64,000 nucleotides of DNA from an uncultured Candidatus Saccharibacteria bacterium (GTDB taxonomy: Bacteria > Patescibacteriota > Minisyncoccia > Minisyncoccales > GWA2-38-27), in contig CAYUSS010000004.1 in the NCBI GenBank assembly GCA_964447515.1, forward strand, positions 532 through 64,531, written 5' to 3'. Both the position numbers and the translations under genes were made by a program. Each line of letters starts with the position of its first letter. The first letter of the stretch is position 1. Below are positions 15,428 through 60,045 of this stretch, piece after piece. The notes under the pieces are model-generated. The model was not told the origin of the DNA, did not search any database, and was given only the letters and a program-made list of their open reading frames with translations.

Positions 15428-15464
15428 ATTCAAGGTCGGGTGTTCAAGGTTGGGTCTTGAACAT
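15428..15464 (-). repeat. GTTCAAsACCCGACsTTGAAC repeat (inverted copy)
   Basis: ATTCAAGGTCGGGTGTTCAAGGTTGGGTCTTGAACAT is the reverse complement of the element found at 27875 and 31912. Confidence 0.7.
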
Positions 15465-17086: not shown

Positions 17087-17239
17087 ATGACAACAACAAT
17101 TATTTGGATAGTGGTAGCAGTTGTAGCAGTCGGAATAATAATTTATCTTCTATCCGGGAAAAAAGGCAAGAAAGGGGGTCCTACCGCGCCGCCAACACCG
17201 CCAACACCGCCAACACCGCCAGAGGGTCCAACGATGTAA
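17087..17239 (+). CDS. small membrane protein, 50 aa, TM plus (PPT)n tail
   Basis: MTTTIIWIVVAVVAVGIIIYLLSGKKGKKGGPTAPPTPPTPPTPPEGPTM, followed by a strong terminator. Preferred over track ORF 17104..17286 in another frame. Confidence 0.45.
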   Translation: MTTTIIWIVVAVVAVGIIIYLLSGKKGKKGGPTAPPTPPTPPTPPEGPTM

Positions 17240-17264
17240 CTTTTATTACAAAAGTAATTTGTTC

Positions 17265-27874: not shown

Positions 27875-27948
27875 ATGTTCAACACCCGACGTTGAACACC
27901 CGACCTTAAACACTTAAAAACGGCTCACTGCGTAGCGAGCCGTTTTGT
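27875..27948 (+). repeat. GTTCAAsACCCGACsTTGAACACCCGACCTTAAACA repeat plus terminator hairpin module (after mraY)
   Basis: ATGTTCAACACCCGACGTTGAACACCCGACCTTAAACA, then AAAAACGGCTCACT-GCGT-AGCGAGCCGTTTTG. The same module lies at 31912-31982. Confidence 0.75.
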
Positions 27949-29412: not shown

Positions 29413-30528
29413 ATGAGAGATAAAAAAATTTGTCATTTCGATTATAGTTTAGCCATTGTAGTAGCCGTCTTGCTAATTTTGGGGATTTTAGTTTTGGCTA
29501 ACGTTTCGGCAGTTTTTTCTCAAGAAAAATTTGGAAAAACAACTTATTATCTTTCACATCAAATAATTTATGGATTATTTCTTGGAATTCTTTTAGGTTT
29601 TATTGCATTCAAAATTCCCTTATCCCGGTTTAAAAAGTGGGCCTGGCCCTTGGTTTTATTAAATTTAATCTTAATGCTCTTGGTCTTTATTCCAGGAATA
29701 GGCATTGTTTCGGGTGGAGCGCCGCGTTGGTTAAATTTGGGGTTTGTTTCCTTTCAACCGTCTGAGTTTTTAAAACTTGGTTTTATTCTTTATCTCTCTG
29801 CCTGGTTAACTAGTTGGACAAAAAAAAATTCCCACAAAAAAACTGGTGGGGTGTTTACCCTGATTCCTTTCCTTATAATAGCAGGGGTTATTATCTTTCT
29901 TTTAAGCTGCCAATCAGATATTAGCACTTTAGGGGTAATTATTTGTGTTGCTTTATTAATGTATTTTTCAGCAACTACCCCTTTATGGCATATTATTTTA
30001 ATGGCTTCAATTTTTAGCGGAGTGATGTTGGCTTTAATAACAGTTGCTTCTTATAGAATGGAGAGAATTTTAGTTTTTTTAGGGATGAAAAGCGACCCAA
30101 TAGGAATAGGTTATCAAATAGAGCAGGCTCTGATTACAGTAGGTTCAGGAGGAATTTTTGGATTGGGACTGGGCGCGTCTAAGCAAATTGATTTTCTCCC
30201 CCAGACAATGTCAGATTCAATTTTTGCTATCTATGCAGAAGAAACAGGGTTTATTGGTTCTCTGGTTTTAATTTTTCTTTTTTTATTTTTCCTTTGGAGA
30301 GCATTTAAAATTGTCAAAAAGAGCTCTGATAAATTTTCTCAGATTCTGGCAATTGGAATAAGTTCCTGGATTTGTATCCAGGCCTTTGTTAGTATCGGCG
30401 CTATGATTGGCATTTTGCCCCTAACCGGCATCCCTTTGCCTTTTATTAGTTATGGAGGTTCACATCTAATTGTTGAGCTTATTGGAGTGGGAATACTGCT
30501 TAATGTTGCCCGACAGGGTTCGAACTAG
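29413..30528 (+). CDS. ftsW: SEDS-family peptidoglycan polymerase FtsW/RodA
   Basis: 10-TM pattern, with QPSEFLKL and PLPFISYGGSH. The last codons and stop (CAGGGTTCGAACTAG) resemble the junction repeat. Confidence 0.88.
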   Translation: MRDKKICHFDYSLAIVVAVLLILGILVLANVSAVFSQEKFGKTTYYLSHQIIYGLFLGILLGFIAFKIPLSRFKKWAWPLVLLNLILMLLVFIPGIGIVSGGAPRWLNLGFVSFQPSEFLKLGFILYLSAWLTSWTKKNSHKKTGGVFTLIPFLIIAGVIIFLLSCQSDISTLGVIICVALLMYFSATTPLWHIILMASIFSGVMLALITVASYRMERILVFLGMKSDPIGIGYQIEQALITVGSGGIFGLGLGASKQIDFLPQTMSDSIFAIYAEETGFIGSLVLIFLFLFFLWRAFKIVKKSSDKFSQILAIGISSWICIQAFVSIGAMIGILPLTGIPLPFISYGGSHLIVELIGVGILLNVARQGSN

Positions 30529-30654
30529 CATCAATTTAGCGGAGCCAATTTGAGTTACCTTCTGCGTTACTCGTCGCTCGTGTGTAGATACTTACAAAGG
30601 CAAGCAAAAGATGATAGAATATGAAAAAGCAAAGCAAAATCTTTTCGGCGTTTT

Positions 30655-30749
30655 TTCAGCGTATAGTTCAGCGCAAATTCAGCGATAAAAGGTTGGTAAC
30701 GCTGAACAAACGCTGATATCTACGCTGAACTACGCTGAACTACGCTGAA
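30655..30749. repeat. phased heptamer array: 3x TTCAGCG then 5x CGCTGA(A/T), ending 22 nt before murG
   Basis: TTCAGCG at 30655, 30667 and 30678. CGCTGAA/T at 30700, 30711, 30723, 30733 and 30743. Spacing is 10-12 bp, and the last three form a perfect 10-bp tandem CTACGCTGAA. Confidence 0.8.
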
Positions 30750-30770
30750 TTATCTAACACCCTATACGGT

Positions 30771-31889
30771 ATGAAGATTCTTTTCACCGGTGGTGGAACT
30801 GCCGGACATATTTTTCCCATAATTGCTATTGCCAGAGAGATTAAAAGAAATTATCCTCAGGGAAAATTTCGATTTTTTTACCTTGGCCCAAAAGATAAAT
30901 TTTTTGGGAACCTTCTTTCTAAAGAAGGGATTGAAGTAAAAACAATTTTAGCTGGGAAAATTAGAAGATATTTTTCTTTGCGTAATATTGTTGATATTCT
31001 ATTTAAATTTCCAATAGGAATCGTTCAGGCATTTTCTCATGTTTTTGTAATTTCTCCTGACCTTATTTTCAGCAAAGGAGGGTATGGTTCGGTGTCCACG
31101 GTTATGGCTGGCTGGTTACTTCTTACGCCAATTTTTTTACACGAATCAGATACTGCTCCTGGATTGGCAAATAAAATAGCCGCTAAGCTTGCTTTAGAAA
31201 TTTTTATCTCGTTTCCCATAAAAGATACTGAATATTTTCCAGCTAAAAAAATGATTTCAATTGGCAACCCTATCAGGAGAGAAATTTTAGAAGGTTCTAA
31301 GGAAGAAGCTAAAAAAATATTTAAATTGACAGGAGAAAAACCAGTAATTTTTATTTTAGGCGGCTCTCAAGGAGCTCAGAGAATAAATGATAGAATATTG
31401 GTGATTTTGTCAGAGCTTTTGGAGAGTTTTGAGGTAATTCATCAAACCGGTAGAAATAATTTTGAGCAAGTAAAAGCCGAGGCAGAGGTGGTAATGAAAA
31501 AGAATTTAAAAAAATATTATCATCCCTTAGCTTTTTTAAACGAAGAAGAGCTATCTTATGCTTATCAAGCAACTGATTTCATTATTAGCAGAGCCGGAGC
31601 AGGAACTATTTTTGAAATTGCAGCTTTAGGGAAACCAAGCATTTTAGTGCCTTTGCCTAAGGCGGCCCAGAATCATCAAGTAAAAAATGCTTATGTTTTT
31701 GCAAAAAATGGCGGCGCTATAGTAATAGAGGAAAAGAATTTCACTCCCCACTTTGTTTTAGAAAAATTGAAATATTTATCTTCCCAACCTAAAAAATTAA
31801 AAGAAATGGCAGAAGGAACTAAAGACTTTTCCAAACCGGACGCAGCCAGAATAATCGGAGAATATATTACCAGTTATTTAATTCAGTAG
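30771..31889 (+). CDS. murG: undecaprenyldiphospho-muramoylpentapeptide beta-N-acetylglucosaminyltransferase
   Basis: GGGTAGHIFP, and ISRAGAGTIFE...QNHQ.KNA. Confidence 0.9.
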   Translation: MKILFTGGGTAGHIFPIIAIAREIKRNYPQGKFRFFYLGPKDKFFGNLLSKEGIEVKTILAGKIRRYFSLRNIVDILFKFPIGIVQAFSHVFVISPDLIFSKGGYGSVSTVMAGWLLLTPIFLHESDTAPGLANKIAAKLALEIFISFPIKDTEYFPAKKMISIGNPIRREILEGSKEEAKKIFKLTGEKPVIFILGGSQGAQRINDRILVILSELLESFEVIHQTGRNNFEQVKAEAEVVMKKNLKKYYHPLAFLNEEELSYAYQATDFIISRAGAGTIFEIAALGKPSILVPLPKAAQNHQVKNAYVFAKNGGAIVIEEKNFTPHFVLEKLKYLSSQPKKLKEMAEGTKDFSKPDAARIIGEYITSYLIQ

Positions 31890-31911: not shown

Positions 31912-32014
31912 ATGTTCAAGACCCGACCTTGAACACCCGACCTTAAACAGTAAAAACGGCTCGCTCTCGTGAGCCGTTTTGCCTGTCCCGCACCGAGCGA
32001 AGCTCGGTGCGGGG
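31912..32014 (+). repeat. GTTCAAsACCCGAC repeat plus two terminator-like hairpins (after murG)
   Basis: ATGTTCAAGACCCGACCTTGAACACCCGACCTTAAACA, then AAAAACGGCTCGCT-CTCG-TGAGCCGTTTTG, then CCCGCACCGAGC-GAA-GCTCGGTGCGGG. Confidence 0.75.
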
Positions 32015-33682: not shown

Positions 33683-33979
33683 ATGGGAGCAATTGAGGTT
33701 GTAGATGTTTTCAGGAAAGGGAAGGTGGCTTTATCAGTAGAGCTAAGTTCTGGAGGCATTGTTTTGAGGTTCTTGAAAAAAAATGGGGAATTGAAAGTAG
33801 TTTCAAGAATCCAAGATAAAACTGTGCTTGACAAAATTCCCTGGGTCTCTGATTCAGATTATAAGGAGATGTGTAGAATAGCAGGGGACATCTTAGATGG
33901 TGTTTCCAGAGAAAACTTGAGGCAGCCAGAGTTTTCTTTATCTAGACGGGAGCAAAAGCAGCTCAAACTTCCTTTCTAA
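33683..33979 (+). CDS. hypothetical 98-aa protein
   Basis: Clean ORF with a strong SD (AAGGAG 7 nt upstream) and a TTGACA-type promoter upstream. No recognisable motif. Confidence 0.5.
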   Translation: MGAIEVVDVFRKGKVALSVELSSGGIVLRFLKKNGELKVVSRIQDKTVLDKIPWVSDSDYKEMCRIAGDILDGVSRENLRQPEFSLSRREQKQLKLPF

Positions 33980-44406: not shown

Positions 44407-44522
44407 TAAATAATTTTAACATATTTTAGAAAATAATACCCGACATTGAACATCAAAAATGTCGGGTATTGAACATTTTATTGACTTTTGGATATAATTT
44501 GATAAAATGGTAAGGTAGAATT

Positions 44523-48355: not shown

Positions 48356-48429
48356 GCCCCCATAGCTCAACTAGGTAGAGCAGGATCCTTTTAAGATCAA
48401 GGTTCTCCGTTCGATTCGGAGTGGGGGCA
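48356..48429 (+). tRNA. tRNA-Lys (anticodon UUU)
   Basis: Manual cloverleaf: acceptor GCCCCCA/TGGGGGC, D arm GCTC..GAGC, anticodon arm GGATC-CTTTTAA-GATCA, T arm CTCCG-TTCGATT-CGGAG. No encoded CCA. Confidence 0.9.
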
Positions 48430-48437
48430 CTATTAAT

Positions 48438-49265
48438 ATGACAGATCCATTATTAGTAGAAAAATGCAGGAAATTGAGAAAAAAAGGATTTACTCTTGGA
48501 AAAATTATTAAAGCTACTGGTCTTCCAAAAACTACAGTTTATGAGCATATTTGTGATATTCCACTTTCTAAAGAAATGAGGGAAAGAATAAGAAAAGAGG
48601 CAAGAGAAAAAATCAATGAATTTATTAAAAAATATAGAAAAGGAAAATGTATTCCTGGAAGAATAGTGCCCAAGCCAAAAGGATGAACAAATGAATTAAT
48701 ATTTCTTACAGCTCATTTTATGTTTGATGGAGAAATTAGATATGGTAGTTGCGTTTATCAAAATAGAAATATTGCTCTGGTTAATAAAGTAAAGGATTTG
48801 ATGCAAAAGATTTTTAATTTAAAACCTTATAATAAATTTTACGAAGAAACTGGAGTTCACCGAATTTCTTTTCACTATGTTGAGCTTGCCGATTATTTTA
48901 GAGAAAAAGTTAAAGAACTTAAAAAATATATCACGAATAGTTCTTTGTTAGAAAAGAAAATATTTCTTCAAGTGTTTTTTGATGATGAGGGATGTGCCTA
49001 TATCTATATTCGTGGCAATAATAGAAAGATAAGGGGATACCAACACAATTTGGAAACTTTAAGACTAATTCAAGCAATATTACAGGATTTTGATATAAAA
49101 AGCAGGATTGAAGAAAAAGGGCAAGAAGTTGTTATAAGTGGTAAACCAAACCTCATAAAATTTCGTGATAAAATTAATTTTTCAAAAGGCATTTTCATAA
49201 ATCCTGAACGTAAGAACAGTATCTGGAAGAAAAAATTAGAAAAAGAGAAATTCTTCAAAAAATAA
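48438..49265 (+). pseudogene. HTH plus LAGLIDADG homing endonuclease, single reading frame interrupted by one in-frame TGA (48684-48686)
   Basis: Track ORFs 48438..48686 and 48720..49265 share a frame with no other stop between them. Motifs are LTAHFMFDGEI and LQVFFDDEGCA (two LAGLIDADG-like helices), with an N-terminal HTH FTLGKIIKATGLPKTTVYEHI. Starts 8 nt after tRNA-Lys. Confidence 0.65.
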
Positions 49266-58395: not shown

Positions 58396-60045
58396 ATGGG
58401 ATTATTTAAGAAAATTAAACATTTCCTTAAAAAAAGAAGACGTTTGGTGATGGGTTTTTTTATAGCGGTATCTGTTGTTTGTTTATTCGTATATTTCGCA
58501 GCCACTCCTAACATTCAATTTGAAGTTTTAACTCCCAAACACCTAATAAGTTCTGTCTATAAGGTATACGGGAATCCCGATATTGGTTTTTGGTGCGGTA
58601 AAACCGTAATAACAAATACAGGGGATGGCCCGGCATATGATTTAAAAGTATCTTATAAAGTTGAAGGATATACCGACTGGAATGAATCTGTGACTTATCC
58701 AATATTATTGTCCGGCAGTACTGTTGTAGATTTATATTATCCAATATTGCCAAAAGAAATAACAGATTTAAAAACTCCTACTCCTTCCAATATTAAAATT
58801 AAAATTACTTATGCCGAATCGCCCGGGGGCTCGCAGAAAGAAATTACTCAAAATAAATCTATAATGATTCTTGGAAGCCGCGATTTTGTATTTAGCAGTA
58901 TCCTTCCGGAAGAGAGTACCGGAAGTTTTCTTGATAATTTCAGTAATTATCCTCTTTTAGCGGCTCGGGTTACTCCGGCCGATCCGGTTCTTATGAGTTT
59001 TGCCGATATGGGGAATAAACTTGCCGGCGGTCCGGGGGCAAGCCTTTCAGATGACGAAGCTATAAGATCCCTTTCGGGAATATGGCGGGTAGCGGTAAAT
59101 AACAGAATACAATACAAAACAGAACCTTTGGCGTTTTGGACTGGAGAATTTGCTCAATTTATAAAATATCCCAGAGACGTAATAAAAGACAAAGCAGGCA
59201 CTTGTATTGATACGGCGTTATTTTTTGCTTCCGCTGCCGCATCTCAGGGCTTAAAACCTTTTATAATTCTTATGCCGGGACACGCTTTTACTGTCATTCA
59301 ACTGCCCAGCGGAACAAACATAGCTGTAGAAACAACTGCTTTGAATGACAGGGCATCCTTTGGGCAAGCAGTAGATCTTGGAAGTAGAGTTTATAATGAC
59401 GCAATACAGGGACCTTATATTATTGTAGATGTTATAACCCTCCAATCATTAGGAATAACTCCTCCGGAGCTTGAAGAGTTGCCTTCTGACGCTCTTGAAA
59501 AATGGGGAATCAGTATGGCAGGAAGCGGATCTTCAGCGCAACCTCAACCCCAACCTCAACCTCAGCCCCAACCTCAACCCGAACCTCAACCTCAACCCGG
59601 ACCCCAGCCCCAACCCGGAGAAGAAGATTATGTTAACTATGCCAATCCTTATTATCCGGAATGGAATATTTCTTATCCAAATAGTTGGTCAATTCTCCAG
59701 TGGGTGAATGAGATTGATTTATATTCTCCTTCCAAGCAAGTGAGATTTGTTATAGCTTGGGGTTATGGAATGAGCGCCGACCAAGCCAGAAGCACTATGG
59801 AAAATTTTGTGCTGAAGCCGATGGGTGTCCAGACAACAAACGAAAACCCGGATAATGTTTGCGGCATTTCAGCTACTGAAGTGGAATATCAAGGCACGAC
59901 TAACGGTGTAACTTATCTTTTTTACGCTAGATATTTTCAGGCAAAAAATCACGGATTTGCTATTATATATAATTTTCCCAACGACGCGAACTCTAAAAGT
60001 AATTCAGAAACTTGTGAAACCGTTTTGAGAAATTTTGCTCTATAA
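58396..60045 (+). CDS. membrane-anchored transglutaminase-like protein with a (PQ)n linker
   Basis: TM anchor. Cys-His core GTCIDTALFFASAA...LMPGHAFTV. Low-complexity tract QPQPQPQPQPQPQPEPQPQPGPQPQPG encoded at 59536-59615. Confidence 0.55.
   Translation: MGLFKKIKHFLKKRRRLVMGFFIAVSVVCLFVYFAATPNIQFEVLTPKHLISSVYKVYGNPDIGFWCGKTVITNTGDGPAYDLKVSYKVEGYTDWNESVTYPILLSGSTVVDLYYPILPKEITDLKTPTPSNIKIKITYAESPGGSQKEITQNKSIMILGSRDFVFSSILPEESTGSFLDNFSNYPLLAARVTPADPVLMSFADMGNKLAGGPGASLSDDEAIRSLSGIWRVAVNNRIQYKTEPLAFWTGEFAQFIKYPRDVIKDKAGTCIDTALFFASAAASQGLKPFIILMPGHAFTVIQLPSGTNIAVETTALNDRASFGQAVDLGSRVYNDAIQGPYIIVDVITLQSLGITPPELEELPSDALEKWGISMAGSGSSAQPQPQPQPQPQPQPEPQPQPGPQPQPGEEDYVNYANPYYPEWNISYPNSWSILQWVNEIDLYSPSKQVRFVIAWGYGMSADQARSTMENFVLKPMGVQTTNENPDNVCGISATEVEYQGTTNGVTYLFYARYFQAKNHGFAIIYNFPNDANSKSNSETCETVLRNFAL

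Follow-up and report, generated by a model that had tools for sequence, protein, structure and literature searches.

An inverted heptamer array upstream of murG as a putative gene-less copy of a nuclease-associated repeat element in Patescibacteria

Several described systems combine short, iterated or dyad-symmetric DNA repeats with a protein that reads them. The REP/BIME sequences with their RAYT enzymes (REPtrons) are dyad-symmetric short repeats dispersed downstream of genes, where they avoid divergent promoter regions; the associated enzyme gene is bracketed by inverted repeat copies, and repeat sequence and protein subfamily vary together. As HUH/Y1 transposases, RAYTs recognize single hairpins of 20-40 nt. 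Inverted end blocks with several short sites each are present in the TnsB sites of Tn7, the ends of Mu, the plant transposons Ac/Ds and CACTA and in MITEs, and such elements are accompanied by abundant gene-less derivatives and by variable cargo between the ends. Homing endonuclease genes, free-standing or intron-borne, are small selfish nuclease genes located inside a symmetric recognition site; PD-(D/E)XK representatives exist, e.g. I-Ssp6803I. A period of about 11 bp is found in parC of plasmid R1 (where ParR binds 11-bp iterons in two blocks), in the two opposed arrays of DnaA boxes at oriC and in the pho boxes (7+4 bp). MraZ boxes are direct repeats of the GTGGG/TGGGN type that precede mraZ, where the dcw cluster begins. 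Finally, the TIGR arrays (TIGR-Tas) of CPR genomes combine short conserved repeats with short variable stretches; their units of 36 nt with two spacers of 8-12 nt are all direct repeats and adjoin a Nop-domain Tas gene (PMC12045711).

The heptamer array studied here precedes murG in a 64-kb window (the whole stretch of DNA that was analysed, 64,000 nt) of an uncultured Candidatus Saccharibacteria bacterium. The repeat family to which it is assigned below resembles the REP/RAYT pairs in dispersal, avoidance of divergent regions, bracketing of an enzyme gene and co-variation of repeat and protein, but the flanked gene codes for a 133-aa PD-(D/E)XK nuclease (PF13366/TIGR04256) and not for a HUH/Y1 transposase, and the murG-type repeat consists of four heptamers at 11-12-11 nt without sign of selected pairing. 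With MITEs and iterated-end transposons it shares the inverted multi-site blocks, the gene-less derivatives and the variable cargo; in contrast, the heptamer family lacks a target-site duplication and a DDE, serine or tyrosine recombinase, its only ORF being a bare PD-(D/E)XK core, and the ends of the window copy face inward. Homing endonuclease genes are similar in that a small nuclease gene, highly conserved in sequence across distant hosts, lies inside a symmetric, presumed recognition site; the GxxExxY gene, however, resides in no intron or intein, and the presumed site is an eight-unit array present at many loci. The parC, oriC and pho arrays correspond to the murG array in their period of about 11 bp, parC in its two multi-unit blocks and oriC in its opposed arrangement, a resemblance that the original prediction had noticed, but they lie beside their own partition, replication or regulon genes at conserved positions, neither of which holds for the murG array; an iteron or partition site is at odds with the inverted blocks, with the chromosomal housekeeping genes on either side and with the zero matches in viral contigs. 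The MraZ operator is likewise a short motif repeated at about 10 bp in dcw context, whereas the murG array differs in motif, in its inverted blocks and in its ftsW-murG site; no member of the MraZ family was reported among the window ORFs scanned. Readings as MraZ, DnaA-box, DNA uptake or Chi sequences were discarded, as motif, context and the occurrence of one cluster per 64 kb do not fit, and a TIGR array was rejected on the grounds of the 3-5 nt spacers, the inverted blocks and the lack of a Nop-domain/Tas gene among the window ORFs. An OmpR/PhoB-type response regulator, suggested by the period of 7+4 nt and by a response-regulator gene downstream of one related array (locus L026), was dropped because that gene encodes a lone receiver domain and the downstream genes of the family are heterogeneous.

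Structure of the array and of the ftsW-murG junction

The window (GC content 34.5%, a Patescibacteria-type contig) contains the gene order mraY, murD, ftsW, murG, lysS, with a gap of 242 nt between ftsW (29413..30528, plus strand; FTSW_RODA_SPOVE, Pfam E=1e-89) and murG (30771..31889, plus strand; Glyco_transf_28 and C-terminal domain by Pfam, start codon conserved in relatives). Both genes are located on the plus strand, and the opposed blocks occupy the co-directional intergenic region between them. The original prediction described eight copies of one heptamer, three TTCAGCG and five CGCTGAA; the three were recovered, four of the five are exact and the fifth reads CGCTGAT, and a TTCGGCG at 30644 had been missed, which brings the array to nine units with seven exact TTCAGCG/CGCTGAA. 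The left block (30644..30684, plus strand; block HMM E=5.6e-9) comprises TTCGGCG at 30644 and TTCAGCG at 30655, 30667 and 30678, separated by spacers of 4-5-4 nt. It is followed by the 15-nt centre ATAAAAGGTTGGTAA (30685..30699, plus strand), which is conserved in the subfamily with inward-facing blocks (denoted '><'; 13 of 15 positions identical to the centre of the L185 element, alignable with L091 and L193). The right block (30700..30739, minus strand; block HMM E=5.5e-10) contains CGCTGAA at 30700, CGCTGAT at 30711 and CGCTGAA at 30723 and 30733; read on the minus strand as TTCAGCG-tag-TTCAGCG-tagat-ATCAGCG-tttg-TTCAGCG, it shows homology to L185 in every unit. The right-hand side of the array ends in a perfect 10-nt tandem repeat of three CTACGCTGAA, the third copy of which represents an extra unit (30740..30749, minus strand; CGCTGAA at 30743); because the homologous L185 element has one copy fewer, this unit is read as probably a local slippage duplication. 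The right flank TTATCTAACACCC (30750..30762, plus strand) is homologous to the outer flanks TTATTCAACAGTC / TTATTCAACGGTC of L185 and L091, and the element therefore reaches past the heptamers.

The units start at distances of 11, 12 and 11 nt in the left block, 22 nt across the centre and 11, 12, 10 and 10 nt in the right block, in agreement with the predicted spacing of 10-12 bp. Their proposed location on one face of the helix is an approximation, since the family mean of about 11.3 bp would drift by about 28 degrees per unit relative to B-DNA of 10.5 bp; the distance between the last unit, which ends at 30749, and the murG ATG at 30771 amounts to 21 nt instead of the 22 nt given before. 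The presence of the opposed blocks at this site is far beyond chance: on both strands of the window TTCAGCG occurs 12 times versus 4.5 expected copies (none of 100 shuffles reached 12), seven of the 12 copies fall in 30655-30749, and the heptamer forms one cluster in 64 kb. Correspondingly, the two blocks of the array were the only significant matches of the block HMM (nhmmer) over the window. A promoter-like site on the plus strand (30591..30620; CTTACA-18-TAGAAT in the promoter scan, TTACAA-17-TAGAAT by eye) carries a TG upstream of the -10 hexamer; if this site is used, the array would be part of the murG 5' leader.

Contigs with identical MurG have an identical ftsW-murG gap and are therefore regarded as the same strain. 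In the relatives L128, L129 and L130 the gap measures 12-17 nt (17, 15 and 12 nt at 83%, 77% and 74% MurG identity, respectively), and no family block was detected in about 52 kb of sequence from these three and the 86% relative described below. The proposed operator or iteron set of the dcw cluster, against which absence of the array from close relatives had itself been named as evidence, is contradicted by these junctions of 12-17 nt, and the murG array is, to judge from this comparison, a lineage-specific insertion. The closest relative (L127, MurG 86% identical) has a gap of 81 nt filled with unrelated 7-nt repeats; this stretch (L127 2420-2500) is itself a two-block array of four ATGAACA followed by four TGTTTTC, with a weak predicted fold (z -1.0). 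The ftsW-murG junction thus seems prone to picking up short-repeat arrays.

A second difference concerns the 3' end of ftsW. The sequence caaaggcaagcaaaagatgatagaat (about 30595-30620) corresponds to the ftsW stop region of the relatives (aaaagaTGAtagaat), and a segment of about 87 nt upstream of it (30508..30594, plus strand, approximate boundaries), absent from L127, creates the present stop codon (TAG, 30526-30528). Since the stop region of the relatives persists at about 30595-30620, the lineage gained about 87 nt and, separately, the array. The ancestral stop context is retained downstream as the promoter-like extended -10 site. Degenerate heptamers are found in the segment of about 87 nt (TTTAGCG at 30536, TTCTGCG at 30560), which possibly represents an older, decayed element.

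Further features of the window were recorded. A second dispersed intergenic repeat, the 14-mer ACCCGACNTTRAAC, gave nine matches versus 1.55 expected, mostly as tandem doublets (27884-27911, 31921-31948 and 44438-44451 on the plus strand; 15428-15455 on the minus strand); it is located after mraY and after murG, in both cases followed by a conserved terminator-like hairpin (AAAAACGGCTC...GAGCCGTTTTG), and upstream of grpE inside a longer inverted repeat. A LAGLIDADG-type ORF (48720-49265), about 290 nt downstream of a tRNA gene (48356-48429), may be a free-standing homing endonuclease. Two coding repeats were observed, CCGCCAACA in 3.7 copies encoding PPTPPTPPT in a small ORF at 17090-17240 and (CAACCC)n at 59539-59616 in the ORF 58396-60045, an ORF with weak, partial similarity to the anti-phage protein ProA. 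An ORF of 98 aa between lysS and serS (33683-33979) is preceded by a good Shine-Dalgarno sequence and matches no NCBIfam family; the gene calls of sister contigs include it, with no Pfam match on record there.

A dispersed repeat family and its placement

Clusters of the heptamer were found in other Patescibacteria genomes and in metagenome contigs. The matches listed from a GTDB genome scan for three TTCAGCG were mostly one-orientation tandem repeats of high-GC genomes; the relevant ones (L026, L030, L062, L091) are low-GC Patescibacteria with two-block arrays in other contexts, e.g. upstream of tuf in L062 (Parcubacteria), inside a type IV pilus operon in L026 (Saccharibacteria) and near an alanine-dehydrogenase-like ORF (by eye) and a transposase-like ORF in L091. 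The family unit, as defined in this analysis, is a 41-nt block of four WTCAGCG at 11-12-11 nt. The pattern used for the metagenome scan (four WTCAGCG with spacers of 4-5-4 nt; 27 fixed positions) is practically impossible by chance and matched at least 120 metagenome entries, the GC content of the loci ranging from 0.33 to 0.59. The partner blocks, which were not selected by the pattern, are also spaced at 11-12-11 nt; positions not fixed by the pattern are conserved too (unit 2 is followed by T in 133 of 134 blocks, unit 3 preceded by A in 127 and unit 4 followed by G in 100), and the block is therefore more than four equal units. Among the matches listed, 79 clusters showed the canonical arrangement '<<<< gap >>>>', nine the arrangement '>>>> <<<<', and 70 were single blocks; the murG array belongs to the minority form '>>>> centre <<<<'. 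It aligns over its full length with the '><' elements of L185, L091 and L193 at a mean column identity of 75%, the alignment including the spacers, the 15-nt centre and the right flank. These three elements sit between unrelated genes (L193: between rpsP-like and rnc-like ORFs by eye), and all four copies have the same orientation relative to transcription. A DDE (rve-type) integrase-like ORF recognized by eye in L091 (536-1144, minus strand), about 150 nt from the '><' element, was not seen beside the other '><' copies.

Copies on one contig have common spacer sequences. Neighbours of the elements include fusA-tuf, rpsD-rpoA-rplQ, rpsP-rnc, the type IV pilus operon and glmS; viral contigs gave 0 matches to two inverted-block patterns. 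On the basis of these alignments, the murG array is assigned to a large dispersed repeat family of Patescibacteria (CPR). The literature searched (heptamer, GxxExxY, PF13366, CPR repeats, MITEs) contained no description of these elements.

Both neighbouring genes were called at 80 of 165 sites among the matches listed, of which 70 were co-directional, ten convergent and none divergent, while convergent and divergent gene pairs are about equally frequent in the window itself; the family avoids divergent regions, as selfish repeats do. The elements usually occupy the whole gap, leaving 1-20 nt to the preceding stop codon and to the following start. The genes downstream form a heterogeneous set (68 Pfam families in 60 proteins), in which some recur (rpoA five times, glmS three times, tuf twice). 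One rpsD-rpoA copy is common to two genomes whose RpoA N-termini are about 70% identical by eye, with the spacers less well kept than the heptamers; the retention of the heptamers at this site could reflect a host function instead of mere tolerance. No excess of direct repeats was present at any offset around 83 elements, and classical cut-and-paste transposition is thus unsupported.

A GxxExxY nuclease gene between the blocks

In L026, a 133-aa ORF (PF13366 PDDEXK_3, TIGR04256 GxxExxY) is positioned exactly between the '<<<<' and '>>>>' blocks. The same bracketing of a GxxExxY gene was observed in seven array-selected loci (L026 and six more) and in all four loci retrieved through the protein alone (P0152, P0208, P0189 and P0174), in which the host gene upstream is co-oriented with the nuclease gene; none was seen bracketed by the '><' arrangement. 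The central gap of other elements is empty or contains other cargo, e.g. terminator hairpins. The junction of ORF and block varies, the ATG being located 0-45 nt from the block and the ORF entering the right block in one frame or another, all three being represented, with QR, SA or FSV as the resulting C-termini. According to the protein alignment, these endings are the three reading frames of TTCAGCGT (L026 3842-3852); the CGCTGAW block contains four TGA triplets at offsets 0, 11, 23 and 34 that span all three frames. Between the heptamer family and GxxExxY genes there is a tight linkage.

The GxxExxY alignment shows no variation at the catalytic residues E33, D72, E82 and K84. The predicted model (pLDDT 86) consists of a bare PD-(D/E)XK core, with LHK-Exo alkaline exonuclease, Cas4 SSO0001 and lambda exonuclease as best PDB structure matches (TM about 0.5); the PDB sequence search gave no meaningful match and PADLOC no defence-system match for the nuclease. 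The subfamily comprises 876 clusters at E<=1e-20; for the best 120 of these 876, identity amounts to 71-83% over both Saccharibacteria and Parcubacteria, and many come from short contigs. Short contigs together with high identity across hosts would fit a mobile multicopy gene.

In six divergent GxxExxY genes, the bracketing inverted arrays consist of different short repeats, i.e. TGCGGAT/ATCCGCA, ATGCCAAT/ATTGGCAT and GACACGGAT/ATCCGTGTC (L181 423-913; L177 7014-7489; L205 2114-2621; L259, L260 and L261 around 520-1100); three of them were found through the protein, and the bracketing fits in all three. The insertion of one divergent element separates the ATP synthase beta gene from the epsilon gene. 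The loci chosen for WTCAGCG contained no gene-less arrays built from the other repeat types. The repeat thus changes with the protein subfamily, as expected if the protein reads the repeat; from this change and from the position of the gene we infer the link between nuclease and heptamers. A functional study of GxxExxY proteins was not found in the searched literature.

Origin of the murG array and alternative explanations

The murG array is probably a solo, MITE-like gene-less copy of a nuclease-associated selfish repeat element and not a conserved cell-division operator. In the autonomous form of such an element, two facing blocks would bracket the gene of about 400 nt for the 133-aa GxxExxY nuclease, always co-oriented with the host operon; the heptamers would act as recognition sites of the nuclease, which would drive the spread of the element in a homing-like or transposition-like manner that leaves no target duplication. 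Gene-less copies would be non-autonomous relics, tolerated because they lie between genes inside operons. In this lineage, the ftsW-murG junction would have been tight until the murG copy inserted there, with a later duplication of one 10-nt unit of the element. At murG the element is probably a passenger, for which a single side effect is predicted, namely a strong hairpin formed by the ftsW-murG transcript 21 nt ahead of the murG start codon. As reader of the heptamers, the selfish GxxExxY nuclease would be the most likely protein, and not a cell-division regulator. As a tentative generalization, to which we give somewhat less credence, the GxxExxY proteins (TIGR04256/PF13366), a large family with no assigned function, might drive minimal mobile elements of a new class: one PD-(D/E)XK gene inside host operons, two inverted blocks of iterated, subfamily-specific recognition repeats of 7-9 nt, no target duplication and abundant gene-less derivatives like the murG array.

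The main rival explanation keeps the nuclease and turns the arrays from the ends of the element into its target: the repeats would be an independent family, either host-derived or selfish, and GxxExxY a free-standing homing endonuclease gene, copied into the centre of an array after its product has cut there; the murG array would then be an unoccupied homing site. The constant position of the nuclease gene in the central, variable gap of canonical elements, the unrelated cargo (terminator hairpins) that this gap also carries, the variable ORF-block junction, the missing target duplication and the existence of PD-(D/E)XK homing endonucleases such as I-Ssp6803I would all be compatible with such a target, but the spread of the arrays themselves is left unexplained, several array families (ATCAGCG, ATCCGCA, ATTGGCAT, ATCCGTGTC) would each have to disperse independently, and the '><' form in the window is without the canonical central gap; we therefore consider it rather unlikely. 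An operator array, at which a transcription factor (possibly a domesticated GxxExxY protein) would regulate murG and other housekeeping operons from within, appears improbable. That the array binds a protein, as originally proposed, is in line with the conserved heptamers, their fixed spacing and the lack of covariation, and the location between a promoter-like site and murG (21 nt from its start), the recurrence of housekeeping genes downstream (rpoA, glmS, tuf) and the conserved rpsD-rpoA copy would suit a regulatory function. The further proposal of an operator in the dcw cluster, however, is at variance with the missing array at the same junction in relatives, with the same element in unrelated intergenic regions, with the complete lack of divergent sites among the 80 examined, the ten convergent ones offering no promoter to control, and with the heterogeneous downstream functions; moreover, the associated protein retains an intact nuclease active site, no regulator, rep or GxxExxY gene was detected in the 64-kb window, and no transcription factor was found among its ORFs.

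A selected RNA element, i.e. a long interrupted hairpin that stabilizes the ftsW mRNA, is processed by RNase III in the manner of rRNA intervening-sequence stems or tunes murG translation, is judged slightly more doubtful still. The predicted RNA fold of the array is strong on either strand (-47.3 kcal/mol, z -6.3; other strand -52, z about -6.7), the family always occurs in transcribed intra-operon or 3' regions, and the four '><' copies are oriented alike relative to transcription. The fold uses a register shifted by one unit, in which 9-10 nt are perfectly complementary (TAGTTCAGCG/CGCTGAACTA and TTCAGCGTA/TACGCTGAA); the earlier statement that the spacers are not complementary thus applies to the symmetric register, but not to the shifted one. 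The accompanying view of a simple hairpin as a poor explanation was borne out by 47 related elements of canonical arrangement, which were aligned block to block and showed no covariation between the blocks: 73.7% of the cells paired versus a shuffle mean of 78.1%, and the covariation score was 0.059 versus 0.098 in the shuffles. For most elements the selection demanded that one block be perfect, so that these variation statistics are biased and double changes suppressed. The variable core position exhibited 34 mismatches and 18 G.U pairs as opposed to one compensatory change; the core hexamers "pair" at 94-98% because both blocks are conserved, compared with only 30-51% in the spacers. In the transcribed orientation, G.U is not favoured (10 versus 20 A.C), single blocks have no strand bias (20 versus 18), and Rfam, at gathering threshold and at permissive E-values, contained no matching family, the only matches being tRNAs and a group I intron. 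In consequence, a selected hairpin between the two blocks is unlikely, and the symmetry reflects a motif that is read as such, most simply by a protein. Purely local replication slippage, with neither relatives nor function, is extremely improbable; the perfect threefold tandem repeat of CTACGCTGAA and the other short-repeat array at the same junction in the 86% relative would be in its favour, but homologous elements with the same spacers and centre occur at unrelated loci of other organisms, so that slippage accounts for the extra 10-nt unit only and is refuted for the array as a whole.

The nuclease-linked heptamer element is apparently undescribed so far and may be akin in kind to the REP-RAYT or MITE-like elements. 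If its interpretation as a nuclease-associated selfish element is true, it would provide the first testable function for the GxxExxY nucleases, which are annotated in thousands of genomes, and an element with PD-(D/E)XK as its only enzyme would join the few known repeat/enzyme pairs such as REP-RAYT. Likewise, a repeat family would be defined that breaks up CPR assemblies and occupies gaps inside operons beside core genes such as rpoA, tuf, glmS and murG; in genome annotation, such arrays should then not be taken as local regulators of the next gene.
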